This document shows positions 8,477-22,948 of a stretch of DNA of 25,196 bases, piece after piece. The number at the start of each line of letters is the position of its first letter. Position 1 is the stretch's first letter. Source of the DNA: Pseudomonadota bacterium (GTDB lineage: Bacteria; Pseudomonadota; Alphaproteobacteria; Rhizobiales; JACESI01); contig JBCBTO010000001.1 of assembly GCA_039818625.1 (NCBI GenBank), forward strand, positions 1-25,196, read 5' to 3'. The position numbers and the translations under genes were made by a program. The notes under the pieces are model-generated. The model did not search any database and was not told the origin of the DNA. It saw only the letters and a program-made list of their open reading frames with translations.

Positions 8477-9496
8477 ATGGAAAAGCTCCCCACATATGAT
8501 GACGTGCTCGCGGCTGACCAACGGATCAGCGGTGATGTCGTGCGCACGCCTCTTCTGCGTTCGGATCTTCTTGATAACCTGACCGGCGGCACGGTTTTTC
8601 TGAAGGCGGAAAACCTCCAGCATACCGGGTCCTTTAAGTTTCGCGGTGCCACGAATGCGATCAAGGCGCATCTCGAAACGGGGGATGCCGTCAATGCAAC
8701 TGGTGTTATTGCGTGTTCGTCGGGCAACCATGCGCAGGGCGTGGCTGAGGCGTCGCGTATCGCAGGTATTTCAGCCACCATCGTCATGCCGAGTGATGCC
8801 CCGTCCATCAAGGTCGAGCGGACCCGTCGATCCGGGGCGGATATTCTGTTTTACGACCGATCCGTTGAGGATCGCGAGGTGGTGACGGAACAGCATCAAG
8901 AGCGCCTCAAAGCTCAGTTGGTGCATCCCTATAACGATCCTTACGTGGTTGCGGGGCAGGGGACGTGCGGGCTTGAGGCAGCTGACCAACTTCAAGCAAA
9001 AGGACTTGAACCGGATCATGTGCTTGTTTGCACTGGCGGTGGCGGTTTGTCAGCCGGGATATTTCTTGTGATGCAAGACCGCTTTCCGTCAGCCCAGTTT
9101 CACACTGTGGAACCGGAGGGTTTCGACGACTACCGCCGGTCACTGGAGGCTGGTGAGCGCCTCACCAACAAGGCGACAGTGGGCTCGCTGTGTGATGCGA
9201 TCCTGACGCCAATGCCGGGTGTGTTGAGCTTTGCGATTTTAAACGGTGGGGCCTCGACACCTCTCGTCGTCAGTGACAAAGCAGCGCTCGATGCGGTTGC
9301 CTTTGCCTTTCATGAACTCAAGGTCATTGTTGAACCTGGCGGTGCCGTTACGCTCGCAGCGCTCCTCACCGGCCAGTTGGATGTGCGCGGTAAAGTTACA
9401 CTGGCAACCCTTTCGGGAGGCAATATCGACCCGGAGATTTTTGCAAAGGCGATCAGTGGTTACGCGCCCGTTTCAGGTGAAACGGTGTTACCCTAG
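8477..9496 (+). CDS. PLP-dependent threonine/serine dehydratase family protein (no ACT domain)
   Basis: LKAENLQHTGSFKFRGA (PLP lysine), SSGNHAQGVA, HPYND..V.AGQGT, GGGGL, EPGGA, LSGGN. At 339 aa it lacks the IlvA regulatory C-terminus. Confidence 0.88.
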   Translation: MEKLPTYDDVLAADQRISGDVVRTPLLRSDLLDNLTGGTVFLKAENLQHTGSFKFRGATNAIKAHLETGDAVNATGVIACSSGNHAQGVAEASRIAGISATIVMPSDAPSIKVERTRRSGADILFYDRSVEDREVVTEQHQERLKAQLVHPYNDPYVVAGQGTCGLEAADQLQAKGLEPDHVLVCTGGGGLSAGIFLVMQDRFPSAQFHTVEPEGFDDYRRSLEAGERLTNKATVGSLCDAILTPMPGVLSFAILNGGASTPLVVSDKAALDAVAFAFHELKVIVEPGGAVTLAALLTGQLDVRGKVTLATLSGGNIDPEIFAKAISGYAPVSGETVLP

Positions 9497-10602
9497 CCGA
9501 AAAGTGCGATGCGGGTTGAAAGCGGGATTGTTTCTTCGTCGCTTTCTTCCAACGTGATCGTGGTGTCGTCTGAATGCCTTGGATCAGCTGGCTCTTCGAC
9601 CCGATCAGCTGTTTTCTCGTCCGATAGATGCGTTTCTGCCGGGGGAGCTTCTGTCTTTACGGGCTCTTCTGCCGCGATTTCGAGCGGTTCAAGAGTTTCG
9701 GACGAAGTCTGTTCGGCTTCATCGTCCTCAATTTCATCGTAGATGTCATCGAGCTCGAAATGCTCATCATCGATCAGGAATGGCTTGTCATCGTCATTGC
9801 CGTCTGCAAGGCCGTCACCGCCGCCCCATTCGATCTGGAAGACTTCCTCCGATGGGTCGGCAAACGCGTAGTCCTGCATCATCATCGTATCGATTTCGGA
9901 CTGCTCTTTCGCCTGGCCCGGAAGAGCCGGGCCGTTCAGCAAGCCCGCATCTTCCTCGCGGGCGCGAGCGGTCGGCTCATAGGTGGTGAGGTCTTGCTCC
10001 CCCCACACCTCGACCATTGATTTCAAGCGGCTTTCCATGAAGGAGATGACTTGCACGACTTTGCGCAGGCGTTGACCGGTGACATCCTGGAACGAACAGG
10101 CCGTGTAGATTTCCGTTGCCAGCTGATCGAGGGTTTCGCACTCGGTCTCCTGGGCTCCGGCTTCGCGCATTTCCCATGCGGTTTCCTGCACCTTTTCAGC
10201 GGCGGCAAGGATGCTTGACGTTGCTGTCTCCGTCTCGTCGATGACCGCATCAAGCTCGTTGGTCGCGTCCATCATGCGCGTCGTACCATCGGCGCGCCGT
10301 GTGTCGGCTATCTCATATTTGATCTGGTCGATCGTCTGCGTCATGTCGACAATGTCCAGACGCATCTGCAAGACGTCGGGCGGCTCGTGCTCGCTTGAGA
10401 TATAGCTTTTCAAGCCCTCAATGGCATGGAGAACGCGATCCGTATCCGAAACCCGGTTGCGCTTTGCATATTCAGCGAGAAACCACCGACCGCGAGCCGT
10501 TTCCATAACGGCCTCTTCTATCGCGCGGTAGTCTTCTTCGTTAATGTTGTCGGGTTGGATGATATCCGGCATGCGGGGGGCCCGGCTGTTGTTTTCGTCC
10601 AT
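9493..10602 (-). CDS. Alphaproteobacterial CheZ-like protein phosphatase with an N-terminal extra domain and acidic tail
   Basis: ELDAVIDETETATSSILAAAE and EIYTACSFQDVTGQRLRKV (CheZ D-x3-Q catalytic motif), then GLLNGPALPG...QSEID. The start could also be the ATG at 10572. Confidence 0.72.
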   Translation of the reverse strand: MDENNSRAPRMPDIIQPDNINEEDYRAIEEAVMETARGRWFLAEYAKRNRVSDTDRVLHAIEGLKSYISSEHEPPDVLQMRLDIVDMTQTIDQIKYEIADTRRADGTTRMMDATNELDAVIDETETATSSILAAAEKVQETAWEMREAGAQETECETLDQLATEIYTACSFQDVTGQRLRKVVQVISFMESRLKSMVEVWGEQDLTTYEPTARAREEDAGLLNGPALPGQAKEQSEIDTMMMQDYAFADPSEEVFQIEWGGGDGLADGNDDDKPFLIDDEHFELDDIYDEIEDDEAEQTSSETLEPLEIAAEEPVKTEAPPAETHLSDEKTADRVEEPADPRHSDDTTITLEESDEETIPLSTRIALFG

Positions 10603-10662
10603 TTACGAACAAAAAAGTTTATGAAGTGTAGTCATATTATTGATTCGGTAGAAAATAATCGC

Positions 10663-11835
10663 ATGGTTTCCTCCCCAATCCGCGTTTCATTATTTGTGGG
10701 GGTGGTGTTTTTAAGCCTTGGAATATACCTGCCGTTCTTCCCATTGTGGCTGAAATCCCAACTATACTCTCCATCTGAGATTGCAATATTGCTCGCGATA
10801 CCACTTTTAGTGCGCGTCCTGCTGACCCCGCTTGCCACCGCTGCTGTCGGGCGGGCTCGAGAAAGGCGAGGGGTTGCGGTTGTCTATTGCTTCCTGTCCC
10901 TCGTGTTCTTTGCCGCGCTCGCCCTTGACTTCGGGTTTTGGTCGACGGCCATCGCGCTCGGGCTCTTCGGTGTCTTCTGGCATGCGCTGATTCCCATAGG
11001 CGATTCTTTTGCGCTCACCGAGGTGCGTCAGCATCAGGCGAACTATGGGACAATCCGACTTTGGGGCTCCGTCAGTTTCATTCTCGCCAATCTTGGAGCC
11101 GGGATTTTGATCGCGCAATATGCCGAGACCCCAGGATGGGTGATCTTCGTCGTCATCTGCGCCGCACTCGCCGGTGCCACCGCGAGTGCTTTTGCCTTGC
11201 CGCGCTATGGCTTGCCTGCGTCTGAACGGCCGAAAACTGATATTCCGATCTGGTTTGACCTCAAGCGGTTCCTCGTTGATCGCCGGTTCCTCCTCATCGC
11301 GCTCAGCGGTGGGTTCACCCAAGCCTCACACGCCATGCTTTATAGTTTCGGCACGCTTTTGTGGGTGGAGCGCGGCTATACACTGCGGGAAATCGGCATT
11401 TTCTGGGCCGTCGGTGTGCTCGCCGAAATTGTGTTGTTCACACAGGCGCGCGGGCTCTTCTCGAAAATCGGCCCTGCCCTGCTTCTTGCCATCGGCGGTT
11501 TGGCCGGTGCCCTGCGATGGGTTTTGCATGACGACGTTGATGGTTTTTATCTCATCGTCGCTTTGCAAATGCTGCATGGGCTTTCCTTCGGCGCGACACA
11601 TCTCGGCAATCAAGCTTTCATAGCGGCACATGTGAGCGAAGACGATACGCCGTCGGCCCAAGGGGCGCTGGTCTTCGTAAGCGGATTGATCATGGCCTTG
11701 TTTACGATGGCGTCCGGCCTTCTCTACGCTCAGTTTGGAAGCCAGGCGTTCATGGCCATGTCGATCACCTGCCTTTGCGGACTCGCAGCCCTGTTCCTCC
11801 TGCGTTATCCCCACAAGGCCCGGTCCGCCGGGTGA
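10663..11835 (+). CDS. MFS permease (HcaT/MFS_1_like)
   Basis: About 12 hydrophobic helices; GIYLPFFPLWLK, NYGTIRLWGSVSF, IFWAVGVLAEIVLF, LQMLHGLSFGA.HLG. The ATG at 10663 is preferred because the longer ORF would overlap the divergent cheZ-like gene. Confidence 0.85.
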   Translation: MVSSPIRVSLFVGVVFLSLGIYLPFFPLWLKSQLYSPSEIAILLAIPLLVRVLLTPLATAAVGRARERRGVAVVYCFLSLVFFAALALDFGFWSTAIALGLFGVFWHALIPIGDSFALTEVRQHQANYGTIRLWGSVSFILANLGAGILIAQYAETPGWVIFVVICAALAGATASAFALPRYGLPASERPKTDIPIWFDLKRFLVDRRFLLIALSGGFTQASHAMLYSFGTLLWVERGYTLREIGIFWAVGVLAEIVLFTQARGLFSKIGPALLLAIGGLAGALRWVLHDDVDGFYLIVALQMLHGLSFGATHLGNQAFIAAHVSEDDTPSAQGALVFVSGLIMALFTMASGLLYAQFGSQAFMAMSITCLCGLAALFLLRYPHKARSAG

Positions 11836-12788
11836 ATCGTGCTGCCATCAAAGGTGAGGGCATGGTCGCAATCCTCTGCGAGCAGGAGGGGGCCATCCAA
11901 ATCGACCCACTCGGCACCTTGTGCGATCATAAGCGCGGGGGCCATGGCGAGCGATGATGCCACCATGCAGCCGACCATGATGATGAGACCATGCTCACGG
12001 GCTTCCTCGCATAAGGCAATTGCCTCGGTCAGACCGCCCGTCTTGTCGAGTTTCACATTGACCGCATCATACCGTGCGGCCACGTGGGCCAATTCTTGCC
12101 GGGTGTGAATGCTCTCATCCGCGCAAAGCGGGATGGGTGATTTGATCTCCAAAAGCGCGTCGTCGTCACCAGCGGGAAGGGGTTGTTCAATCAGCCCGAC
12201 CTTGGCATTGATGCAGGCGGTGAGGTGGTCGTCCCATTGGTCGCTGGTCCAGCCCTCGTTGGCGTCCACGATGAGTTTTGCGTCAGGTGAGCCACGCCTC
12301 ACGGCTTCCAGCCGGTCCGCATCTCCGTCACCGCCGAGCTTGATTTTCAACACCGGTCGGTGGGATGCGGCGCGCGCCGCCTCAAACATGATATCCGGCG
12401 TGTCGAGACTCAGGGTGAAGGCGGTCTCCACAGGGCTCAGGGCGATGGATATCCTATCAGCCACTGGGGTTCCTGTTTGCTTTGCCGTGAAATCGTGAAA
12501 GGCGCAGTCGAGCGCGTTGCGGGCAGCGCCCGGCGGTAGAGCGGTTTGCAAAGCGCCCGCATCAGCCAGTGAATCCGGGTGTTTTGCAACGGTTTCGAGT
12601 TGTTCCAGCACACTTTCAACACTCTCGCCATATCTTGGATAAGGCGTGCATTCACCACGGCCAATATGGGTGCCGTCAGACAATTCTGCGATCACCGTGT
12701 CCGCTGCCGTCTTCACGCCGCGAGAAATGCGGAACGGCTTGGCGAGAGGCCAGTTTTGCGCTTTGGCCGTGAGACTTAAGGACGGCAT
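11805..12788 (-). CDS. dgcA: Enolase-superfamily L-Ala-D/L-Glu epimerase / N-acetyl-D-Glu racemase DgcA-like
   Basis: PFRISRG, GRGECTPYPRYGES, GAARNALDCA, catalytic K-x-K (LKIKLG), metal ligands DANE, EQP and ADES, NVKLDKTGGL, DLDGPLLL. Confidence 0.85.
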   Translation of the reverse strand: MPSLSLTAKAQNWPLAKPFRISRGVKTAADTVIAELSDGTHIGRGECTPYPRYGESVESVLEQLETVAKHPDSLADAGALQTALPPGAARNALDCAFHDFTAKQTGTPVADRISIALSPVETAFTLSLDTPDIMFEAARAASHRPVLKIKLGGDGDADRLEAVRRGSPDAKLIVDANEGWTSDQWDDHLTACINAKVGLIEQPLPAGDDDALLEIKSPIPLCADESIHTRQELAHVAARYDAVNVKLDKTGGLTEAIALCEEAREHGLIIMVGCMVASSLAMAPALMIAQGAEWVDLDGPLLLAEDCDHALTFDGSTIHPADRALWG

Positions 12789-12959
12789 CTGTTTCTCCTC
12801 AGAGGATAAGTTCCCCGCTTTCTAACGGTTCATAGAAACGCGATAAACCTCCCTGCGGCCAAAAAGCGATCCTGATTGCTGCGGATCGGGGCCGCAGTCA
12901 GCGGTGGGGCGTTTAGAAAAGTGGGTGAAGACCCGGCAAGTTGTTGTATAACGCTTTTC

Positions 12960-14105
12960 ATGGATGCGCGTGTTGAAGATTCCGCTGGGCGGATTGTCTC
13001 CAATGACCGATTGGGCGAAAGCGAACAGTTTTCCGCCATCGGACAATGGGTGATCGGTTACGCAAGCCTCATTCAAACCCATATCGAGAGTTTGCCCGAA
13101 CCGATGGCTGAGCGCATTGCAATCTCGCTTGCCGACATCGATGCCCTCGACACGTCGGGTGCGTGGTTGCTGTTCAAACTCAAGGACAGATGGGAGGCGA
13201 GCGGAACTGTCGTGTCTTTCGTTCGCCCGAGTGAGGAACATATCGTATTGTTGAGCGCGATCAGCGATGCGGCGGCTGAGGTGCGCAAGATCGAACCCGA
13301 ACGCGGGACCGGTGAGACGCTCGTCCAGTTCCTGGTCAATCGCTGCACGGCCGCCTGGGACGATGCGCTGCGGCTCCTGTCGCTCATGGGCGCGCTCCTC
13401 TCCACGTTCTTCAAACGCATGGTCACATGGGAGTGGCGCTTTGCCGCCATCGTCACCCATATGATGCGCACCGGACTTACGGCTGTGCCGATCATCGTTT
13501 TAATGTCGTTCGTCATCGGCGCAATTGTCGCCCAGCAAGGGGCCTATCAGCTCAGCTTTTACGGTGCGGACATCATGGCGGTTGACCTCGTCGCCGTTCT
13601 CGTCACGCGGGACATGGGTGTTCTTTTGACCGCGATCATGGTGGCGGGGCGATCTGGCTCCGCTTACACCGCCGAAATCGGATCGATGCGGATGCGCGAG
13701 GAAATCGACGCGCTTAAGGTCATCGGCCTCGATCCGGTCGATGTTCTGATTTTTCCGCGTATTGCGGGGCTCATTCTCGTGTTGCCGCTACTCACAATCA
13801 TCGCCGATTATGCCTCGCTCCTCGGCGCGCAGCTTGCGCTGTGGCTTTACATCGACATGTCATGGCAGATTTTTGTGGAGCGGGCGCGGGATGCGACGCC
13901 GCTGTCCTATTTCCTGATGGGCGTGGTGAAAGCCCCGTTCATGGCACTGATCATCGGCCTCATCGCCATGTCGGAGGGGCTGAAAGTGTCCGGCAGTTCC
14001 GAATCGCTTTCGAAGCACACGACGATTGCGGTGGTGAAATCAATCTTCATGGTTATCGTGATTGATGGCGTTTTCGCCGTGATTTCGGCCAATCTCGGAT
14101 ATTGA
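12960..14105 (+). CDS. mlaE: MlaE-family ABC permease with an N-terminal STAS (MlaB-like) domain
   Basis: N-terminal ..IDALDTSGAWLL (STAS). Permease motifs G..AVPII.LMSFVIG, RDMGVLLTAIMVAGRSGSAYTAEIGSMRMREEIDAL, VVKSIF.VI..D. The ATG at 12960 is preferred. Confidence 0.9.
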   Translation: MDARVEDSAGRIVSNDRLGESEQFSAIGQWVIGYASLIQTHIESLPEPMAERIAISLADIDALDTSGAWLLFKLKDRWEASGTVVSFVRPSEEHIVLLSAISDAAAEVRKIEPERGTGETLVQFLVNRCTAAWDDALRLLSLMGALLSTFFKRMVTWEWRFAAIVTHMMRTGLTAVPIIVLMSFVIGAIVAQQGAYQLSFYGADIMAVDLVAVLVTRDMGVLLTAIMVAGRSGSAYTAEIGSMRMREEIDALKVIGLDPVDVLIFPRIAGLILVLPLLTIIADYASLLGAQLALWLYIDMSWQIFVERARDATPLSYFLMGVVKAPFMALIIGLIAMSEGLKVSGSSESLSKHTTIAVVKSIFMVIVIDGVFAVISANLGY

Positions 14106-14135
14106 TGATCACGCGAGAAGAAAGGTTCAGACGCC

Positions 14136-14924
14136 TTGGTTGCGCTTGAAGTTGCCCCGGTACAAGACAAGCGGCCCGTCATCCAGGTGGAGGGATTGAC
14201 GGTCGGTTTTGGCGATGTCGTCATTCTGGAAAACCTCGCGCTCGATGTTTATGAGGGTGAAATCCTGGGCGTTGTCGGTGCGTCCGGTACGGGCAAATCC
14301 GTGCTCATGCGGTCCATTCTGGGGCTTAATCAAAAGCGCAGTGGCGTCGTACGCATACTCGGAACTGACTATGACAAGGCCAGCGAAGAACAATGCCAGC
14401 TGATTGACCAAAAGCTCGGTGTCCTGTTCCAGCATGGTGCGCTGTTTTCATCGCTCACGGTGATGCAGAACATTCAGGTGCCGATGCGCGAGTATCTTTC
14501 GCTCGATCAGAAGCTGATGGATGAGCTCGCATTGATGAAAATGGAGCTCGTCGGTCTCGCCCTTGACGCCGCGCATAAGTTCCCGTCGGAACTCTCGGGA
14601 GGTATGATCAAGCGGGCAGGACTGGCGCGCGCGCTCGCGATCGATCCATCCGTGATTTTTCTCGATGAGCCCACATCCGGGCTTGATCCAATCGGGGCGG
14701 AGGAGTTCGATCAACTCACGCTCAACCTTCGCGATACGCTCGGTGTGACCGTATTCATGGTAACCCATGACCTCGACAGTCTTTTCACGACCTGTGACAG
14801 AATTGCCGTTCTTGGCCAAAAACGCGTGTTGATCGCAGGCCGTATGGAAGAAATGCTTGAATTCGACGATCCGTGGGTGAATGCCTATTTTAATGGGGAA
14901 AGGGGTCGTCGGGCGCATAATTGA
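14136..14924 (+). CDS. mlaF: MlaF-family ABC ATPase
   Basis: Walker A GASGTGKS, Q-loop LFQ.GALF, signature LSGGM, Walker B IFLDEPT.GLDP, H-loop THD. TTG start with AAAGG upstream. Confidence 0.92.
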   Translation: MVALEVAPVQDKRPVIQVEGLTVGFGDVVILENLALDVYEGEILGVVGASGTGKSVLMRSILGLNQKRSGVVRILGTDYDKASEEQCQLIDQKLGVLFQHGALFSSLTVMQNIQVPMREYLSLDQKLMDELALMKMELVGLALDAAHKFPSELSGGMIKRAGLARALAIDPSVIFLDEPTSGLDPIGAEEFDQLTLNLRDTLGVTVFMVTHDLDSLFTTCDRIAVLGQKRVLIAGRMEEMLEFDDPWVNAYFNGERGRRAHN

Positions 14925-14950
14925 CCCGCCGCCTTTGTTATCAAAGCTTT

Positions 14951-16687
14951 ATGGAAACACGCGCGAATTACATTGCCATTGGACTTTTTGCGATCGCCGT
15001 TCTGGTAGCGGGCTTTGTGTTCGTCCTATGGCTGGAGCGGTTTGGCGAAAACAGCTCGTCGCGGGACATCAACCTCGTCATTCCAGGCAGCGCCTCGGGC
15101 CTCGCACGGGGAAGTCCAGTCCTGTTCAACGGGCTTCGCGTTGGCAGCGTTACGCTTGTGGAGTTTGATAAAACGAATCCGGGCAATGTTAAAGCCAATC
15201 TCCAGATCAATTCCGACGTACCCTTGCGCGCGGATACCAAAGTCAGCATCGCAAGCCAGCCTTTGACGGGCCTTGCCAGCGTGTCCCTCCTCGGTGGGAC
15301 TGTCGACGCGCAACCGCTGCTACAGCTCGATGATACGCCGGAGTTGCGTGCGACTACGTCCTCGCTGCAGGGTACGATTGATGAGGCGGCTGCGACCGTC
15401 AAAGCCGCCAATCTTGTCCTGACGCGCGTCAATAATTTGCTCGACAGCAATATCGGGTCGATCAACAACACGGTGAACAATGTCGAGGCGTTCACCAACG
15501 CGCTCGCAAGCAACGCGGACAACATTGATTCCTTGCTGCAGAACGTCGCCGATGCCTCGCAGTCTATCGGTGAATTGAGCAAGACCGTGTCGGCGGTCTC
15601 AGGTGACATTGAAGCGGTTGTGAAGGCGGTGGAGCCTGAAACCGTGAAGACGACGCTAGAAAATGTCGAGGTCATCACGACAAACTTCGCCAAGAGCTCT
15701 GAGCGTATCGATGAAATCGCGGTAGATGCCAAGGCGACGCTCAAGAACTTTGCCAAGCTTTCGGAGGACGTGAACGGCACGCTTTCCAAAGTCGATGGCC
15801 TTGTAAGTGCTGTCGATCCGGCGCGCATCAGCAGCGTCGTGGCAAGCGCGGACACGCTGCTCTCGTCGATTGATCCCGCTTCCGTTTCAACCACGCTCGG
15901 CAATGTGGAAAAAATCACCACCGATTTTGCCAACACCACGGACGACTTCGACCGCATCGTCGGCAATGTCGATCGTGTTGTGACCGATCTTTCGCTCTTT
16001 TCAAGCGGGCTCAACACGACGGTCACAAGCGTCAATGCGCTCGTTGCCCGCGTTGATGGCGATCAACTCGAACGCACGCTTGAGAATGTTGAGACATTCA
16101 CCGGGAGCCTGAACTCGACGCTGAAGGAGGTGGATACCCTCGTCGGCGCGCTTGATGCTGAGCGGGTGAATGCGCTCATTTCAAATCTTGAGTCATTTGC
16201 AGGTAAGCTGAACAGCACCGGTGATGAGATTGATGCCATCCTTGCAAGCGCGAAAGACGCAACCGACGATGTCGCAGTTTTCACCGAAAGCTTGTCGGGC
16301 AATAAGGAAAACATCGACAAGATCGTCGCCGATGCGACTGTCATCTCCGACCGTCTGAAAACGACGACCCTGAGCCTCAACAGCATTCTCGGCCGGGTGG
16401 ACGGGCTTGTCGATGCCGATGGGCGCAGCTTCATCGTTGAGGCGACGGATGCGGCGAAGGCCATTCGTCAGATTTCGGAAAGTTTTCAGGCGCGTGCAGA
16501 CACCATTTCGCAAGGGCTGGAACGCTTTTCGACGCGTGGGCTTGGTGATATCGAGGCGTTGATTAGCCAAAGCAGACAAGCTGTCGCGCGCATTGAAGGA
16601 TTGGTACGCGGTCTTGAGAGCAACCCGACGCAGTTTTTGCTTGGCGGAGGCAAAAAAGTTCCAGAATATCGCCGCCAGCGGCGCTGA
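14951..16687 (+). CDS. mlaD: MCE (MlaD-family) protein with a single MCE domain and a very long repeat-containing helical C-terminus (578 aa)
   Basis: METRANYIAIGLF + TM helix; MCE domain (SASGLARGSPVLFNGLRVGSV...DT.VSIASQPLTGLASVSL.GG); roughly 430 aa of amphipathic helix; C-terminal LESNPTQFLLGG. Confidence 0.88.
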   Translation: METRANYIAIGLFAIAVLVAGFVFVLWLERFGENSSSRDINLVIPGSASGLARGSPVLFNGLRVGSVTLVEFDKTNPGNVKANLQINSDVPLRADTKVSIASQPLTGLASVSLLGGTVDAQPLLQLDDTPELRATTSSLQGTIDEAAATVKAANLVLTRVNNLLDSNIGSINNTVNNVEAFTNALASNADNIDSLLQNVADASQSIGELSKTVSAVSGDIEAVVKAVEPETVKTTLENVEVITTNFAKSSERIDEIAVDAKATLKNFAKLSEDVNGTLSKVDGLVSAVDPARISSVVASADTLLSSIDPASVSTTLGNVEKITTDFANTTDDFDRIVGNVDRVVTDLSLFSSGLNTTVTSVNALVARVDGDQLERTLENVETFTGSLNSTLKEVDTLVGALDAERVNALISNLESFAGKLNSTGDEIDAILASAKDATDDVAVFTESLSGNKENIDKIVADATVISDRLKTTTLSLNSILGRVDGLVDADGRSFIVEATDAAKAIRQISESFQARADTISQGLERFSTRGLGDIEALISQSRQAVARIEGLVRGLESNPTQFLLGGGKKVPEYRRQRR

Positions 16688-16754
16688 AGGTTTGGTTGCC
16701 AGGAGAAGAATCAGCGCATGGTTGAAAGATTACGGTTTTGGGGCCGTGTGAGCG

Positions 16755-17375
16755 GTGCTTTTGGGGCGTAGACGGGTGATTAGACGTATTTGCAAAGGAC
16801 TGGGCCTTTCTGTCGCGGCACTTGCGCTTGCAAGCTGCGCGATTGTTGCGCCACCTCCTGCGCCGGACGTTTACAATCTCACCATCGATGATGGCTTCCA
16901 AAGCGTGTCGGGCGGTACCCGCAGTCAGCTTTTGATCACTGAGCCGAAAGTGTTGAGTTCACTCGACAACAACCGCATTGTCATCAAGCCCAATCCCTCG
17001 CAGATCGCTTTTTTCGGTGGTGTGGAATGGGCAGACCGTGTTCCGCGGCTGGTTCAGCTTCATCTGAGTAGGGCGTTTTCCACCACCGGTAAGGCGCGGG
17101 CCGTGGGCTTGCCCGGTGACGGGCTCATCATTGATCATCAACTGCTCTTCGACCTCAGGGCGTTTCAAATTGAACAGACCGGCTCGTCGTTTGAAGCTGT
17201 TGTCGAGATCGCGGTGCGCATTTTGAACGACCGGAATGGTCGGGTGATTGCGACGGAGACTTTCTCTTCAAGCGTGCCCACATCCGACGATCCTGTCGCG
17301 GCAGTGAATGCCCTCAACGAGGCCATGAATGCCGTGGCGGATGATCTCGTGCGTTGGGTTTTCGCACGCATCTGA
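16755..17375 (+). CDS. ABC-type transport auxiliary lipoprotein (PqiC-like)
   Basis: Basic N-terminus, hydrophobic core and lipobox LASC (Cys codon 16836-16838); LLITEP..LSSLDNNRIV, EWADRVPRLVQ, LLFDLRAFQ. The start is uncertain (GTG 16755 or 16776). Confidence 0.82.
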   Translation: MLLGRRRVIRRICKGLGLSVAALALASCAIVAPPPAPDVYNLTIDDGFQSVSGGTRSQLLITEPKVLSSLDNNRIVIKPNPSQIAFFGGVEWADRVPRLVQLHLSRAFSTTGKARAVGLPGDGLIIDHQLLFDLRAFQIEQTGSSFEAVVEIAVRILNDRNGRVIATETFSSSVPTSDDPVAAVNALNEAMNAVADDLVRWVFARI

Positions 17376-17458: not shown

Positions 17459-20400
17459 TCAGTCGAAGCGTCCACTTGCTTGTGCGAGCATGGTGTAGAC
17501 GCGGCCCGCATCGGAATTCAGGTAGTTTTCCGATTGGCGGTTGTCGGGATCGTTGCGTGAGACCTCAAACATCAGAAGTTCGAAGTCGGCAATGTAGCGG
17601 TCCACGATGCTTGCAAAACCATTGGATGCCCGGTAGTTCGCACGGATTTCGTCGCGCAACTGCCTGCTTTCCAAGGTGCGCAGGCGTTGGGTGAAGACGC
17701 TGCGTTCACCGCGCTGGTAACGTTCCCACAATTCCACGGCTGCATCGCGGTCGACAATGCGGGCGATATCCACGGACAGCGAGTAGAGCGATTCAATGAT
17801 GTGTTCTGCCGAGCGCTGAACAGGTTGAGAGCGCTGCTCCTCAACGGTGCGCGGGCTTGTTTCATCGGTTGAGGCTCGCCGCAGCAGGTCTTTCACCCAT
17901 CCGCCGTCATTGCCATTGTCACGACGTATGGCTGGTTGTTCGCGGCGTTGCAGATTTGGGGCCGGGCGCTGAGGCGCGGGCTGGAAGGCAGGGGAGGTGC
18001 TGTAGGTGTCGTTTTCCTCCGCCGCAAGCTTTGCCGTTTCTTCGATGATGTCGAGCGATGGCTCGTCCTGATCCGCCTGCGACTGCAGCGCCAGACTATC
18101 CAGATTTTGGATAGGGTTGGTTGGCTGCACCGGACGCGTTGGGCGTTGTGGCGCGGGGGCGCGGGTCTCTTCAACTGGTGGTGTCTGTGCTTGGACGGGC
18201 GCTCGCGCCGGTGCCTGGGCGGTTTGCTGATAAGCAGGATTGCTCGCTGGCCGTGGCGATGTTCTTCGCTCGACCGCAGGGGCTGCCTCCGCCTGCACCT
18301 GTGTCGGCTGAACTGGCGCGGGCTGAACAGGGGCAGCTTGGGCTGCACGACGCGGCGCGCTTTCCTGCAATGCCGTGGCGGCTCGTGCTGGTGCCGGTGC
18401 AGTCGCAGCTGGAGCCGGGCGTGCGCGTTGTTTGTTGACGATTTCGCTCAAGTCATTGAGCGCGCGCACCTGCTCGCTCACAAGGCGGCGCATGGCGGCG
18501 GTGCTTTCTTTCGTCTCTTCCGGGAGGTCGAACACGCCGCGCTTGATTTCGTTGCGGGTCGCCTGAAGATCTGATTGGATCTGCCCAGCCACCCTGCGCA
18601 TTTCTTCCGAAGCTTCGGAGAACCGCTCGGTTGCTTCAACCACCGCCTCATTCAGCTGTGCGTTCGCACCGGCTCGCAATTCGTTCAGACGGTTCGTCAC
18701 ATCTTCCGATGCCTGGCGCGCGGTCGAGGCTAGGCCGGTACTGATCAATTGCGCGCGTTCTTCGGTCTGTTTGATGGTATCGCCCATCATGGTCGAGAAA
18801 GACCGCAAGAGCTGTTCGATGTCTGCGCTCTTGGCGACAAGGCCTTGAGAGAGGACCTCGATCATGTTTTGGCGCTCTTCCACCGTGGTGTCGATGGTGC
18901 GGCCTGCATCGTTCAACATGTTGGCCGCTTCGACGAGGGCATTCGATTGGCCGGCAAATCGATTTGCAAGAAGGCCCGTATCGCGGATTGTGGTCTCGGA
19001 GAGTTCGCGCAGTTTCTCGATTTCACCCGCCAGGAAGTTGTTGGCAATGCCGGTTTCATCGGCGCTGCGTGAGATCGCATCACGCAATTGCAGGGACCGG
19101 CTCGTCAGACCGCTTTCGATGGTTGCGAGATTTTTATCCGCATCGGCAAGGGCGGCCTTCAGGTCGCTGTTGGTTCCGTGTAAACGGCCGAGGACGGTGT
19201 TGACCTCATTGGCGAGCTGTTGACGGGTTTCCTCGATCAGCGTGTTGGCACTGTCCATTTGGTCGCGCATGGACGTAATGAGTTGCATTCCCTGGGTCTG
19301 CATCGCATCGACGACTGCGCGGCTGGTGCGTGTGACGCCTGACGTGATTTCGGCACCCTTGGTCTCCAGGGCCTCGACCGCAGCCTGGCTCGTGGCATCA
19401 ACACCGGAGACGATGTCGGCCGTTCTGGTTTCCAGGGCGTTGACAACTGCCTGACCGGTCGCATTGACGCTTGATGTGATCTCGGCGCCTCGGGACTGCA
19501 GAGCGTCGAGGACCGCGCGGCTGGTGGTGTTGACGCTGGACGTGACTTGAGTGCCCGTCTTTTCGAGCGCTTGGACCATGTTTTGGCCATCGGCGTTGAA
19601 AAGGTTGCTCAATGCATCTGTGCGATCGCGCAGCATGTCTTCGATGTTTGAGGCCCGCTCCATCAGCGTTTGCTCTGAAAGCGCCGTGCTCGACTTCAAC
19701 ATGGCGTCGACATTGCGGGCGCGGTCTTCGAGCGTTTTTTCCATGTGGAGCGTGGAGCTCTCCAAGGTGTTGCGCAATTCTTCCGCATTTGTGGAGATGG
19801 TTTGCGCGGTCTCGGAGGCCGATGCACGGATGCCGGTTGTAAGCCCGGTCAGGGCGCGGATGAGAGTTTGACCCGCCTCATGGGTTTTCGATGCGAAGGT
19901 GCTCGCCGCATCATCCGCCGCCATGATGAGGTTGGCGCTCGAATTGTCCGAGATTTCCGCGATCTTGCGGTGGGCCTCTTCCGCGTCATTCACAAGGCGC
20001 GTGCTCGCATCGACGATGTGGTTTTCGACGAGGTCTTCCATGCGCTTCGCTTTGGTGTCGAGGAGGCCGACGACATCGGATACAGAGGTGCCAAGGGAGA
20101 CGTTGATCTCCTTCGTCTTTTCAGACAAGGCGTCCATAATTTCAGCGGACTGCGCGCCGAGCCGGTCCGACATGCCCGTGAGGCGCGTCGTCAGGTTGTC
20201 AGCCAGATCATCCGACTGTTTGCTGAGCGCCTCGTTGACGACGTTGAACCTCGTGTCGATGGACGTGGTGAGCTCTTCCTGACCGGCCGCGAATGTGTTG
20301 GCGAGGTCTCTCGTGCGTTCAACGAGTGTCTCGCCGATCTGGCGCGCCCGGCTATCCAGAGCCTCATCGATCGTTTCAACGCGTTTGCCGATTTCGTCGG

Positions 20401-22948
20401 AGATCGCTTGCGAGCGCGCACTCAGGTTATTCGATGCGCCTTCCAGCTTGTCTTGGAGGTTGACCGAGATTTCATCTGCGCGGGCTGCGAGGCCATCGGC
20501 CGCGGTAGACATGCGCTCATCAATGGATTTCGTCACGCCGTCAAGCCGGGTTTCCAAGGTCGTGTCGATGTCTGCAACGCGTTTTTTGAAAACGGCATCC
20601 ATTTCTTCGACCCGCTCGCCGAGCAGTTCGGTCAGCGTGTCGCCCTTTTCACCTACGACGTTGTTGATCTTGATGAGGCGATCATCGATATCACCGCGCA
20701 GCGCATCGGTCTTGTCTTCGAGGTTTTTGATAAGGTCGATGCCTGCCTGCGCCACCGCTTTATTCAGCTTGTCGTTGCGGATTGACAGGGCCTGCGCCAC
20801 CTTCTCACCCACATTGGCAATGTTCTCGCCGATGTTGATCGTTTGCGTAGAGAAGGTGTCGTTGACATGGTTGACGGCATTGTCGATGTCGCCCACGAAG
20901 GATGCAGCGCGGTCTTTCAGAATATCGGCGACGGCCTGACCGGATTTTTCAATCCGTCCTGCGAGCGCATCGCCATCTTCCGTAACGAGTTTTTCAATCT
21001 TGTTGGTGGTGTCAAAGAGATTTTCGGCAAGTGCCGTGCCCTTGTCCGTGATGCTGTCTGCGACGCGTGTGCCGACTTCGTCGAGGCGGTCGGTGATGGT
21101 CGTGCCGCGCAGGGACAGATCAACCACCATGGCATTGGTCGTTGTCTTCATTTGCTCGGTGATTTCACCGGCTTGTGTTGCGAGTGCGTCGGTGATCGAT
21201 GAACCGGTGACGCGCAATTCATCTGTGAGGCTTGAACTCATAGTGCTGAGTTCGCCAGTGAGGGACGCTCCCATGCCTTGCAACTCGGACGTCAGCGCTG
21301 TGCCCGTGCCCCGAAGCTCGTCAGTGAGGGAGGAGCCGGTCGTTTGGAGCGTGTCTGAAAGGTTGGTTCCAGTCGCCTGGAGGTTCTCCATAAGCGAGCC
21401 GCCCGTTGCCTTTAATTCCTCGGTCAAGGACGTGCCGGTCGCGTGGATCGTATCCGTCAGCGTGATGCCGGTCGAGCTCAAGGTTTCCGTCAGGGTCGAG
21501 CCGGTGGTCTGGATCGCGTCAGTTAGCGATGTTCCGGCATGTTGGAGACGGTCGGTGAGGGCGGTGCCTTGGGTCGTCAGGTTGGATGTGATTTGATCAC
21601 CCTGGGTGACAATAGCGTCCGTGATCGAAGAGCCCGTGGTCTGGAGCGTTTCGGTCAGGACCGATCCCTGCGCCGTCAAGTTCTGTGTGATCTCGCTGCC
21701 GGTAAGGGACAATGTTTCCGTAATCGCGTGCGAGCGCTCGGTCAACGCATCGCGCAAGGCGTTTCCAACCTTGGCGAGGTTGGTGGCGACCTGATTGCCC
21801 TGGGACGAGATCGTATCAGTCACCTCAGCGCCGGTCGCGGCCAGATTTCCGGTCAGAGTCTGGCTCGCCTCTTCGAGTGATGTCCGCATGTCATTGCCAA
21901 CAAGCGAGAGGCGTTCAACAGCGTCAGCACCGGTGCTTGTGAGGCGGGTCACCAAGTCCGCGCCATGGTCCGTCAGCGTGGCGATCAGATTTTCGCCAGC
22001 ATTGTTCATTTCAGATGTCAGTTTTTCCGTGTTCACTCCAACGGATTGACTGATTTCCTCACCTGCGTGGCGCATGCGTTCGGTTGCGTCGTTCAAATTG
22101 ACGGTCACGCTCTCACTCAACTGGGTGAGATCGTGGCCAAGATCTTCGCGGGCTGCGACCAGCGATGTGCTGAGACGGTCCGCATTGTTGACGATGGCCT
22201 CGCGCTGGCTGATGAGATCATCAATGAGCCCCCGGATGCGCAGTTCATTGTCCGAGTAGGAGCGCTCAAGCGACAGCATCTCATTGTGGACGAGGACTTC
22301 AAGTTCGCTCGCGCGGGCAAGCACGCGCTCCACTCCATCTCCCATCGCAGCCACTTCACGGCGTACGGCCTGACCAACGGTCACGACGGAATCGGTTGCG
22401 ATGTCTTCGGGTTCAGCAAGGCGCAATGCCACTTCAGACATGGAATTTGCCGCGAGGCGCATTTCCTGCGCGCGCCAGAAGAAGCCGGCCATCGTGAAAA
22501 ACAGAAGGATCGGGACGACGGTAGCGACGGCCCAAATGACCGTGGATGGTTCATTGAAGAAAGACCATCCCTGCTCAAGCGAGTTCAAATTCGCGCCGAA
22601 GAAACGGTTGCCCAAAAAGAGCGATCCGCCGAGCCAGATGACCGTGACCGCGAGCGCGATCCAAAACGGTGTCGAGGATGGACGCCGCTGCAGGCTGAAC
22701 AGAATATTGCCGATGGATTTGCGATCATCATTGGCGGGCGCTTTTTTCGCAGCCTTCGCCAGAGGCTGGTCGTCGCCATCACTGACGTCTTGTGTCGTGT
22801 CTTCAGTTGCTTGCTTCTCAAGATCGAAATGCAAGGTGTCCGGCACCTCATTGGCAGGGCCGCCGAAGTCGATTTTCAGGGCTTCTTCAACAGCATCAAT
22901 CGCAGCCTGAGCGGGATCCTTCTCGGAGACTTTGAGTTTTTTTGCCAT
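17459..22948 (-). CDS. rgsE: RgsE / Growth Pole Ring (GPR)-like apolipoprotein-repeat polar scaffold protein, 1829 aa
   Basis: N-terminal DPAQAAIDAVEEALKIDF; two TM helices (FWIALAVTVIWLGGSLFLG; VIWAVATVVPILLFFTMAGFFW); AVRREVAAMGDGVERVLARASELEVLVHNEM.SLERSYSDNELRIR.L; long 11-mer helical repeats; Pro/Ala/Gln linker; C-terminal GGWVKDLLRRAS and LWERYQRGER.VF...Y..DFE.L...GRVYTMLAQASGR, as recalled for rhizobial RgsE/GPR. Confidence 0.85.
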   Translation of the reverse strand: MAKKLKVSEKDPAQAAIDAVEEALKIDFGGPANEVPDTLHFDLEKQATEDTTQDVSDGDDQPLAKAAKKAPANDDRKSIGNILFSLQRRPSSTPFWIALAVTVIWLGGSLFLGNRFFGANLNSLEQGWSFFNEPSTVIWAVATVVPILLFFTMAGFFWRAQEMRLAANSMSEVALRLAEPEDIATDSVVTVGQAVRREVAAMGDGVERVLARASELEVLVHNEMLSLERSYSDNELRIRGLIDDLISQREAIVNNADRLSTSLVAAREDLGHDLTQLSESVTVNLNDATERMRHAGEEISQSVGVNTEKLTSEMNNAGENLIATLTDHGADLVTRLTSTGADAVERLSLVGNDMRTSLEEASQTLTGNLAATGAEVTDTISSQGNQVATNLAKVGNALRDALTERSHAITETLSLTGSEITQNLTAQGSVLTETLQTTGSSITDAIVTQGDQITSNLTTQGTALTDRLQHAGTSLTDAIQTTGSTLTETLSSTGITLTDTIHATGTSLTEELKATGGSLMENLQATGTNLSDTLQTTGSSLTDELRGTGTALTSELQGMGASLTGELSTMSSSLTDELRVTGSSITDALATQAGEITEQMKTTTNAMVVDLSLRGTTITDRLDEVGTRVADSITDKGTALAENLFDTTNKIEKLVTEDGDALAGRIEKSGQAVADILKDRAASFVGDIDNAVNHVNDTFSTQTINIGENIANVGEKVAQALSIRNDKLNKAVAQAGIDLIKNLEDKTDALRGDIDDRLIKINNVVGEKGDTLTELLGERVEEMDAVFKKRVADIDTTLETRLDGVTKSIDERMSTAADGLAARADEISVNLQDKLEGASNNLSARSQAISDEIGKRVETIDEALDSRARQIGETLVERTRDLANTFAAGQEELTTSIDTRFNVVNEALSKQSDDLADNLTTRLTGMSDRLGAQSAEIMDALSEKTKEINVSLGTSVSDVVGLLDTKAKRMEDLVENHIVDASTRLVNDAEEAHRKIAEISDNSSANLIMAADDAASTFASKTHEAGQTLIRALTGLTTGIRASASETAQTISTNAEELRNTLESSTLHMEKTLEDRARNVDAMLKSSTALSEQTLMERASNIEDMLRDRTDALSNLFNADGQNMVQALEKTGTQVTSSVNTTSRAVLDALQSRGAEITSSVNATGQAVVNALETRTADIVSGVDATSQAAVEALETKGAEITSGVTRTSRAVVDAMQTQGMQLITSMRDQMDSANTLIEETRQQLANEVNTVLGRLHGTNSDLKAALADADKNLATIESGLTSRSLQLRDAISRSADETGIANNFLAGEIEKLRELSETTIRDTGLLANRFAGQSNALVEAANMLNDAGRTIDTTVEERQNMIEVLSQGLVAKSADIEQLLRSFSTMMGDTIKQTEERAQLISTGLASTARQASEDVTNRLNELRAGANAQLNEAVVEATERFSEASEEMRRVAGQIQSDLQATRNEIKRGVFDLPEETKESTAAMRRLVSEQVRALNDLSEIVNKQRARPAPAATAPAPARAATALQESAPRRAAQAAPVQPAPVQPTQVQAEAAPAVERRTSPRPASNPAYQQTAQAPARAPVQAQTPPVEETRAPAPQRPTRPVQPTNPIQNLDSLALQSQADQDEPSLDIIEETAKLAAEENDTYSTSPAFQPAPQRPAPNLQRREQPAIRRDNGNDGGWVKDLLRRASTDETSPRTVEEQRSQPVQRSAEHIIESLYSLSVDIARIVDRDAAVELWERYQRGERSVFTQRLRTLESRQLRDEIRANYRASNGFASIVDRYIADFELLMFEVSRNDPDNRQSENYLNSDAGRVYTMLAQASGRFD
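19250..19579 (-). repeat. Five in-frame 22-aa (66-bp) tandem repeats in rgsE/gpr
   Basis: MVQALEKTGTQVTSSVNTTSRA / VLDALQSRGAEITSSVNATGQA / VVNALETRTADIVSGVDATSQA / AVEALETKGAEITSGVTRTSRA / VVDAMQTQGMQLITSMRDQMDS. Confidence 0.9.
21131..21724 (-). repeat. Eighteen in-frame 11-aa (33-bp) Thr/Gly/Ser-rich tandem repeats in rgsE/gpr (aa 409-606)
   Basis: Consensus [LI]T[DE]xLxxTG[ST][SA], e.g. LTETLQTTGSS, LTDAIQTTGST, LTEELKATGGS, LSDTLQTTGSS, LTDELRVTGSS. Confidence 0.92.

Follow-up and report, generated by a model that had tools for sequence, protein, structure and literature searches.

Does the length of a lipid-transport needle follow the width of the periplasm? The question is raised by a gene, mpcD, in a 25,196-nucleotide stretch of DNA (hereafter, the window; positions 1 to 25,196 of contig JBCBTO010000001.1 in assembly GCA_039818625.1) from an uncultured marine member of the Hyphomicrobiales. 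The gene lies at 14951-16687 and encodes MpcD, the MCE subunit of the published Mpc (Mla-Pqi chimeric) trans-envelope lipid transporter; its closest MpcD relatives are likewise from uncultured marine Hyphomicrobiales. An initial reading of the sequence (the original prediction) had seen in the protein's C-terminal portion an 80-residue tandem duplication together with recurring helical motifs, and had proposed that the number of modules may track the width of the periplasm. We find that the needle is an array of 29-residue repeats, usually paired in a 61-residue super-module, that one super-module has an old second copy, and that modules have been gained or lost repeatedly among relatives. We consider it moderately probable that MpcD is an Mpc needle with duplicated modules whose length is evolutionarily labile and is not matched to the width of the periplasm.

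The MpcD Needle Is an Array of Short Helical Modules

The proteins of the window were searched with Pfam and NCBIfam profiles. The features of mpcD on which the argument turns are as follows, in window coordinates.

14951-16687, + strand: mpcD, encoding the 578-residue MCE protein, stop codon included (Pfam MlaD, E = 9e-14, residues 47-114; TIGR00996 MCE family, E = 3.4e-25)
15362-16642, + strand: needle region, residues 138-564, about 427 residues with about 12 copies of a 29-residue helical repeat (iterated module hidden Markov model, HMM)
15629-15814, + strand: super-module copy A, residues 227-288, about 61 residues, forming the first part of unit A (super-module HMM, E = 1e-37)
15815-15868, + strand: linker between the copies, residues 289-306, DPARISSVVASADTLLSS, a partial module (comparison of A-to-B offsets)
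15869-16054, + strand: super-module copy B, residues 307-368 (super-module HMM, E = 5e-37)

The open reading frame extends over 14921-16687 (+), and translation probably starts at the ATG at 14951, for a protein of 578 residues whose sequence opens METRANY. The product consists of a transmembrane helix (residues 7-32), one MCE domain (approximately 37-135), and a helical needle (138-564). The domain matches, the module HMM, and the breaks in a structural model (see below) all agree with the original description of an MCE protein whose long helical C-terminus is made of kink-separated helical motifs.

Units A (window 15629-15868, MpcD residues 227-306) and B (15869-16108, residues 307-386) had been reported to align without gaps over 240 bp, and they do so: 25 of the 80 residues are identical, with a BLOSUM62 score of 121. 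Moreover, 80 is the best self-offset across the whole of MpcD, and its score of 123 is to be compared with a mean best score of 25.6 (standard deviation 7, maximum 51) in 200 shuffles of the helical region. Repeat significance, which had been named beforehand as a check, is thereby established relative to the shuffled helical region. The two motifs of the original prediction (one beginning [LV]Nx[TI], the other D/E-[PGA]) had each been counted four times, and a regular-expression check found exactly four of each at the quoted strings, the first at residues 274, 354, 387, and 476 and the second at residues 228, 308, 369, and 402; the count expected by chance for either was 0.0 (2000 shuffles). 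At the DNA level A and B are 47% identical, and identity at third codon positions is 26%, which is the random level; the duplication is therefore old. A recent DNA duplication or an assembly artefact is ruled out by this third-codon value together with the output of Tandem Repeats Finder, which reported nothing.

The repeats are not confined to A and B. Significant self-matches (28-residue window) join residues 164-488 at offsets of 19, 33, 61, 66, 80, 94, 113, 115, 141, 202, 235, and 263, and so the repeats reach past the interval 15629-16420 to which they had been assigned. Given so many offsets, the 80-residue period is one spacing in a larger lattice of shorter modules. A module profile was seeded on six N-[VL]-E-x-[FI]-[TA] sites and then iterated over homologues, and the resulting 29-residue HMM has the consensus VARTVANVETFTQALADNSDRIDGILADA. 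It matches MpcD between residues 171 and 520 in nine clear copies (residues 171-199, 207-227, 232-260, 261-288, 312-340, 340-357, 374-399, 406-434, and 437-462) and three weak ones (481-488 and 507-520, with a marginal match at 293-302). Successive modules in 120 homologues are most often 61 residues apart (110 cases), followed by distances of 21, 30-32, and 39-40 residues. The working unit of the family is the 61-residue super-module, usually a pair of 29-residue repeats, and the 80 residues of the original prediction are one such super-module plus a 19-residue linker. The self-matches and the two HMMs thus replace the 80-residue module, which had been taken as the basic unit, with modules of 29 and 61 residues.

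Two further observations concern the structure of the needle. Its hydrophobic periodicity of 3.55-3.6 residues is coherent over the whole 423-residue region and is compatible with a tunnel, though not decisive. An AlphaFold2 (AF2) monomer, modelled on 75 homologues, has a predicted local distance difference test (pLDDT) value above 90 for the transmembrane helix and the MCE beta-domain, and in it residues 138-564 form, at low confidence, a near-unbroken helix with breaks at residues 225-229, 251-252, 288-289, 306-308, 354-356, 366-370, 398-402, 451, and 486-491. At its C-terminus the model consists of helix and a short tail, without beta-strands. Needle geometry taken from AF2 and Foldseek proved unusable, superpositions on the chains of the mycobacterial Mce1 complex giving root-mean-square deviations of 28-50 Å.

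Modules Have Been Gained and Lost among Relatives

If the needle grew by internal duplication, as originally proposed, relatives should differ by whole modules, and they do. In an alignment of nine sequences, proteins of 483-490 residues (51-58% identical to the 578-residue query) carry one super-module and proteins of 563-584 residues carry two; the gap in the shorter class spans query residues 253-333. Together with the alignment of A and B, this difference of one copy versus two bears out the proposal. The offset from A to B, which is 80 residues in the query, is 73, 80, 87, or 94 residues in different relatives, that is, 61 plus 12, 19, 26, or 33, in steps of seven.

A core tree was built from the conserved parts of the protein only (the first 226 and the last 190 residues). 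Long and short forms of MpcD interleave on this tree, and its well-supported branches alone require at least four gains or losses. Identity between A and B is 33% in residues and 47% in DNA for the query, and it reaches 60% in residues, 67% in DNA, and 47% at third positions in the P0005 lineage. To judge from these values, the copies would differ in age between lineages or would have been homogenised in some.

A survey of length and module number in orthologues, also named beforehand as a check, revealed variation by whole modules of approximately 29 residues each (r = 0.88): for 120 homologues, length equals 29.4 times the number of modules plus 361 (r = 0.875). In distant genera the module HMM loses sensitivity (r = 0.46 for a set of named species versus 0.875 for the near set), and module counts there are lower bounds. 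Between pairs of proteins more than 50% identical, indel sizes peak at 7, 14, 21, 28, 40, 61, 101, and 141 residues. These results support a modularity driven by duplication. We also note that most of the small insertions and deletions in the needle come in multiples of seven residues, as illustrated by a seven-residue insertion, NALVARV (query residues 362-368), by a seven-residue deletion in the 483-residue class, and by the linkers of 12, 19, 26, and 33 residues.

Needle Length and the Width of the Periplasm

How far does length vary? An mpcD gene was present in 308 of 401 sampled genomes of the order, in open frames of 362 to 1333 residues, and in 16 genomes of Acuticoccus (a genus assigned by way of P0126 and P0128) the open frames were of 903 to 2174 residues. 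The longest that we checked, from Acuticoccus (L102:3207-9704, -), is an intact MpcD of 2166 residues with a normal transmembrane helix and MCE start, a normal tail ending in NPSRVLFGGSDAPRYRPQRR, and a 96-residue super-repeat throughout, and it belongs to a complete operon (STAS-MlaE, MlaF, and a PqiC-like protein). A second Acuticoccus gene (L103:2690-7552, +) encodes an intact MpcD of 1620 residues, again with the 96-residue super-repeat, normal N- and C-termini, and a complete mpcEFDA operon. In named species of Roseibium the protein has 541 to 667 residues, as measured by the length of the match. One further frame was aberrant: L104:1865-4573 (+), in genome G406, is an MpcD-like frame of 900 residues with an abnormal tail, downstream of which a frame of 599 residues continues in another phase, and it probably reflects a longer gene that is broken by a frameshift or was misassembled.

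What length would these needles have? In PA3213 of Pseudomonas aeruginosa a needle of 166 residues is seen as a rod of approximately 170 Å, or 179-200 Å in models (PMC13631591). In V. parvula approximately 150 helical residues give approximately 23.5 nm, and the measured periplasm is 24.2 nm (PMC10665443). The 331-residue MpcD of Brucella comes to approximately 250 Å (PMC12436622). On the PA3213 calibration of 1.0-1.2 Å per residue, the 427-residue needle of the query would measure approximately 430-510 Å if straight, roughly 2 to 2.5 times longer than the needles shown or modelled to span the periplasm, and the 2166-residue form, with about 2000 helical residues, would as a straight needle be approximately 200 nm long. 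The intact Acuticoccus proteins thus greatly exceed what a straight strut between the two membranes would need.

As a ruler for the envelope we used TolC. Five genomes in which MpcD has 362, 371, 834, 1038, and 1330 residues all encode a canonical TolC of 468-492 residues that matches its model from end to end, and this constancy suggests conventional trans-envelope dimensions. A second MCE protein, such as PqiB, could have served as an internal ruler, but none was found in the genomes with long or short MpcD that were checked, MpcD being their only MCE gene.

The mpcEFDA Operon, the C-Terminal Tail, and the Neighboring Genes

The mpcD gene is part of a four-gene operon, mpcEFDA (window 12876-17375, +), in the order permease, ATPase, MCE protein, and PqiC-like lipoprotein, and the same order is found in the relatives L100/L101, L016, and L102. 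The other three genes are as follows.

12876-14105, + strand: mpcE, ABC permease of the MlaE type, extended at the N-terminus by a STAS-like segment (Pfam MlaE, E = 3.6e-65, residues 193-403; NCBIfam MlaE family, E = 5e-62)
14136-14924, + strand: mpcF, MlaF-like ABC ATPase (Pfam ABC_tran, E = 7.5e-29; best NCBIfam match MlaF, PRK11831, E = 3.9e-49, below the equivalog cut-off)
16755-17375, + strand: mpcA, PqiC-like outer-membrane lipoprotein (Pfam ABC_trans_aux, PF03886, E = 2.4e-19; N-terminal lipobox ...ALALASC)

The frame of mpcE is counted from a TTG at 12876, taken as a provisional start. The N-terminal extension is 190 residues long, and residues 65-127 match STAS (E = 0.0024) and STAS_2 (E = 0.0037) below the Pfam cut-off; in the Acuticoccus orthologue the match to STAS_2 reaches E = 2e-6, with 28.2 bits versus a cut-off of 29.2. 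A newer release of Pfam contains a family named 'Helical_needle' (PF28544), which is precomputed on MpcD and on all of the listed homologues. The operon contains one mce gene, and mpcD is the sole MCE gene found in the source genome, the assembly of which is 57% complete. In the same incomplete assembly MlaA was not found, and neither MlaC nor MlaA is encoded within the operon. An MlaC-family (PF05494) gene is present on another contig of the source genome (G000:C20:10919-11392, -; E = 1e-19; an open frame of 219 residues).

At the end of MpcD opposite to the membrane anchor is a short conserved segment.

16622-16684, + strand: conserved C-terminal tail, NPTQFLLGGGKKVPEYRRQRR, a likely docking peptide for the lipoprotein ring (conservation and the parallel with PA3213)

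The pattern of the tail, ...NP.Q/R.. GG...P.Y...RR (also written ...GGxxVPEYxxxRR), is kept in orthologues of 483 to 2166 residues. Residues 477-568 of the query align with residues 216-306 of PA3213, of which the last seven residues, 306-312, bind a groove of the PA3214 ring that faces the outer membrane (PMC13631591). By analogy, the tail of MpcD is likely to be a docking peptide on the lipoprotein ring.

The surroundings of the operon are kept as well in the metagenome-only relatives L100/L101, where the order is a CheZ-like gene, an MFS transporter, an MR_MLE enolase-superfamily gene, mpcEFDA, a GPR-like gene, Hpt, and Fer2; window positions 9493-12788 correspond to the upstream part. Downstream, and convergent on mpcA across a gap of 83 bp, is a gene for a protein of 1829 residues (window 17459-22948, -) with two N-terminal hydrophobic segments. 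These are followed by approximately 1200 residues of repeats of the Apolipoprotein A1/A4/E type, matched by Pfam in nine stretches (E = 7e-63), by a spacer rich in proline, and by a C-terminal domain that is conserved. The protein resembles GPR/RgsE, the growth-pole-ring protein known from Agrobacterium and Sinorhizobium (PMC8262873). The adjacency to mpc is kept within the family, in L016 (with a homologue of 1444 residues) and in L100/L101 (1714 residues), and is absent in five genomes of other families, where the GPR homologue is located elsewhere. A functional tie between mpc and the GPR/RgsE-like gene was considered and set aside, the neighborhood holding in its own family and being broken in those five genomes.

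Comparison with Known Systems

The closest described system is the Mpc transporter of Brucella abortus, which consists of MpcE (STAS plus MlaE), MpcF, MpcD (331 residues), and the PqiC-like MpcA; the four proteins form one complex by pull-down, and mpc mutants are altered in resistance to envelope stress and in the lipid make-up of their outer-membrane vesicles (PMC12436622). Lannoy et al. (EMBO J 2025; PMC12436622) also described the 'repeat coiled-coil' C-terminus, its large length variation among the Hyphomicrobiales, and the possibility that length is linked to periplasm width or needle angle. The two systems share the four-gene operon, a protein that combines one MCE domain with a long C-terminus of helical repeats, and membership in the order Hyphomicrobiales. 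They differ in that the Brucella protein, known here by its published description, has 331 residues and a model of approximately 250 Å, whereas the query has 578 residues, about 250 more of them helical, and in that Brucella is reported to be without MlaC, whereas the source genome has an MlaC-family gene elsewhere.

By sequence, the closest solved structure is PDB 13hr, a 312-residue 'Mce/MlaD domain-containing protein' (E = 1.6e-32) that matches query residues 1-244 and 477-568 and that we take to be PA3213. The query and PA3211-PA3214 have in common the four-gene architecture, a needle made of helical modules, and, for the query by prediction, one MCE ring and the docking of a C-terminal peptide on a PqiC-like ring. 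PA3213, with 312 residues, has a needle of approximately 166 residues and 170-200 Å, and the query, with approximately 266 extra repeat residues, looks like the same scaffold with that many residues of modules inserted between the conserved ends. Cryo-electron microscopy (cryo-EM) of the P. aeruginosa proteins revealed an octameric lipoprotein ring around the tip of the approximately 170-Å PA3213 rod, in a periplasmic sub-complex of approximately 230 Å (Giacometti et al., JBC 2026; PMC13631591).

Stacked modules have been described in Mce1 of Mycobacterium smegmatis (Chen et al. 2023; PDB 8fed/8fee/8fef), in which each subunit has eight kink-separated helical repeats, each forming a six-helix bundle, and the bundles are stacked into a hydrophobic tube (PMC9882608). 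These stacked modules give a structural meaning to the 'kink-helix motifs' of the original prediction. Our family profile matches Mce1B at E = 8e-15, and it also matches Mce1C, D, and E in their needle parts; the Pfam family Mce4_CUP1 matches as well. Like the query, Mce1 has tandem helical repeat motifs with kinks between them. Mce1, however, is a heterohexamer of six paralogues with eight modules, a beta-barrel portal, and no PqiC-like lipoprotein, whereas for the query we expect a homohexamer that carries 12 repeats or more and ends in a docking tail.

Two systems of Escherichia coli can also be compared. PqiB and PqiC share the MCE fold and a helical needle, which in the query is likewise predicted to thread a PqiC-like ring, but PqiB has three MCE domains, a PqiA partner, and no ABC transporter, whereas the query has one MCE domain with MlaE and MlaF encoded upstream. 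MlaD shares the MCE fold and an ABC transporter of the MlaFE type, but it ends in only a short helix and depends on the MlaC shuttle and on MlaA, whereas the C-terminal region of the query is approximately 440 residues long.

A Proposed Labile Needle and Its Alternatives

On the strength of homology to these systems, we infer that six copies of MpcD would form an MCE ring on an MpcE2F2 ABC transporter and that their C-terminal helices would be put together one module at a time, as six-helix bundles stacked about a hydrophobic tunnel, and that at the outer membrane the C-terminal tails would dock on the PqiC-like MpcA, arranged as an octameric ring. Units A and B are an old tandem duplication of one super-module together with a 19-residue linker. 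Blocks of repeats have been gained and lost repeatedly in the family, most simply by unequal recombination or slippage between repeats; the changes would survive when helical phase is kept, and it is this phase-keeping exchange that would generate length quanta of 7, 40, 61, and 101 residues. Because the needle is much longer than needed, it would be an over-long, jointed conduit rather than a ruler, and the extra length would most likely be absorbed by curvature, obliquity, or flexibility at the kinks. In this connection, the electron microscopy (EM) map of PA3213 shows a curved needle, which apparently rotates and tilts within its ring (PMC13631591). More tentatively, we suggest that MpcD needles may not be perpendicular struts matched to the periplasm: if all the modules stack as in Mce1 and PA3213, they could build lipid conduits of 50-200 nm, in an oblique, curved, lateral, or other assembly, that link the inner-membrane pump to a distant outer-membrane site.

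Several points weigh against a labile needle that is not matched to the periplasm. A tree of the 57-residue A, B, and single units is unresolved, with long branches, and is too weak to tell independent duplications from a single old one with later losses and gene conversion. The indel counts are not phylogenetically independent, and their pattern is qualitative. In the AF2 monomer the needle is of low confidence (pLDDT 36-70; predicted template modelling score 0.35). The constant length of TolC is only an indirect ruler, and TolA, tried for the same purpose, gave ambiguous matches that were below the cut-off in three of five genomes. Finally, a straight needle of the calculated length would not readily fit into a normal periplasm.

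This last difficulty would be removed if the added modules folded back in antiparallel fashion, forming hairpins or three-helix units of a spectrin- or apolipoprotein-like kind, and so thickened, decorated, or gated the needle while its end-to-end length stayed close to periplasm width. Between modules there are indeed D-P and D-G motifs that break helices, the super-repeats of 61 (21 + 40) and 96 residues would suit multi-helix units, and there are Pfam matches to Spectrin, Apolipoprotein, MCPsignal, and DUF948, but these matches are weak, and low-scoring spectrin-like hits are typical of any amphipathic repeat. Nor does folding back agree with the known needles: at approximately 170 Å for 166 residues, the rod of PA3213 measured by EM is consistent with helices that run on in one direction (PMC13631591), and Mce1 consists of parallel, stacked six-helix modules with kinks between them (PMC9882608). 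Lannoy et al. counted the folding-over of helices in multimer predictions as a failure (PMC12436622), and 2000 residues would be far too long even as three-helix units. We judge antiparallel packing, the chief alternative to our reading, to be unlikely.

We give still less credence to a needle that is straight and perpendicular, with a module number that selection has fitted, species by species, to periplasm width, even though MpcD length varies in module-sized quanta, conservation of the ends implies that the protein still engages both membranes, and the short systems agree with measured periplasm widths (PMC10665443, PMC13631591, PMC12436622). On that hypothesis the 427-residue needle would require a periplasm of approximately 43-51 nm, and the 2166-residue form of Acuticoccus one of approximately 200 nm, whereas approximately 150-170 helical residues already span the periplasms that have been measured. 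Species within one genus differ by hundreds of residues, sister lineages are 73-94 residues apart in a tree with recurrent gain and loss between close relatives, and TolC stays constant over a 3.6-fold range of MpcD length. A simple match of lengths of 362 to 2166 residues to periplasm width is unlikely; the original proposal that module number tracks that width is disfavored, and the same hypothesis, which had already been published in 2025, is as a rule probably wrong.

Least probable is the idea that the amphipathic repeats form an apolipoprotein-like lipid-binding belt or a lateral periplasmic scaffold, with a conduit made from the first and last modules only, for although Apolipoprotein-family matches occur in the long forms, the apolipoprotein-like GPR/RgsE homologue adjoins the gene in the query lineage, and extreme lengths are hard to square with a strut, the idea is without direct evidence, proximity to GPR is lost beyond the family, and the repeats are homologous to those of the Mce1 needle (Mce4_CUP1 scores 79.5 bits in the 2166-residue form, and the family profile matches Mce1 chains).

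Implications

The MpcD of the source genome is an ordinary member of a published system, and its repeats and length variation were already known. The original prediction had singled it out as the best candidate for undescribed biology in the window, but the Mpc needle, its repeats, its length variation, and the periplasm idea are all found in the account of the Brucella system (PMC12436622), and stacked modules are found in that of Mce1 (PMC9882608). What deserves attention, beyond the window itself, is the pattern at the level of the family: changes quantised at 7, 40, 61, and 101 residues, repeated gain and loss, and intact needles of up to 2166 residues that keep both ends. The family thus offers a natural length series for testing how MCE needles are assembled, as straight tunnels matched to the periplasm or as flexible, over-long conduits.

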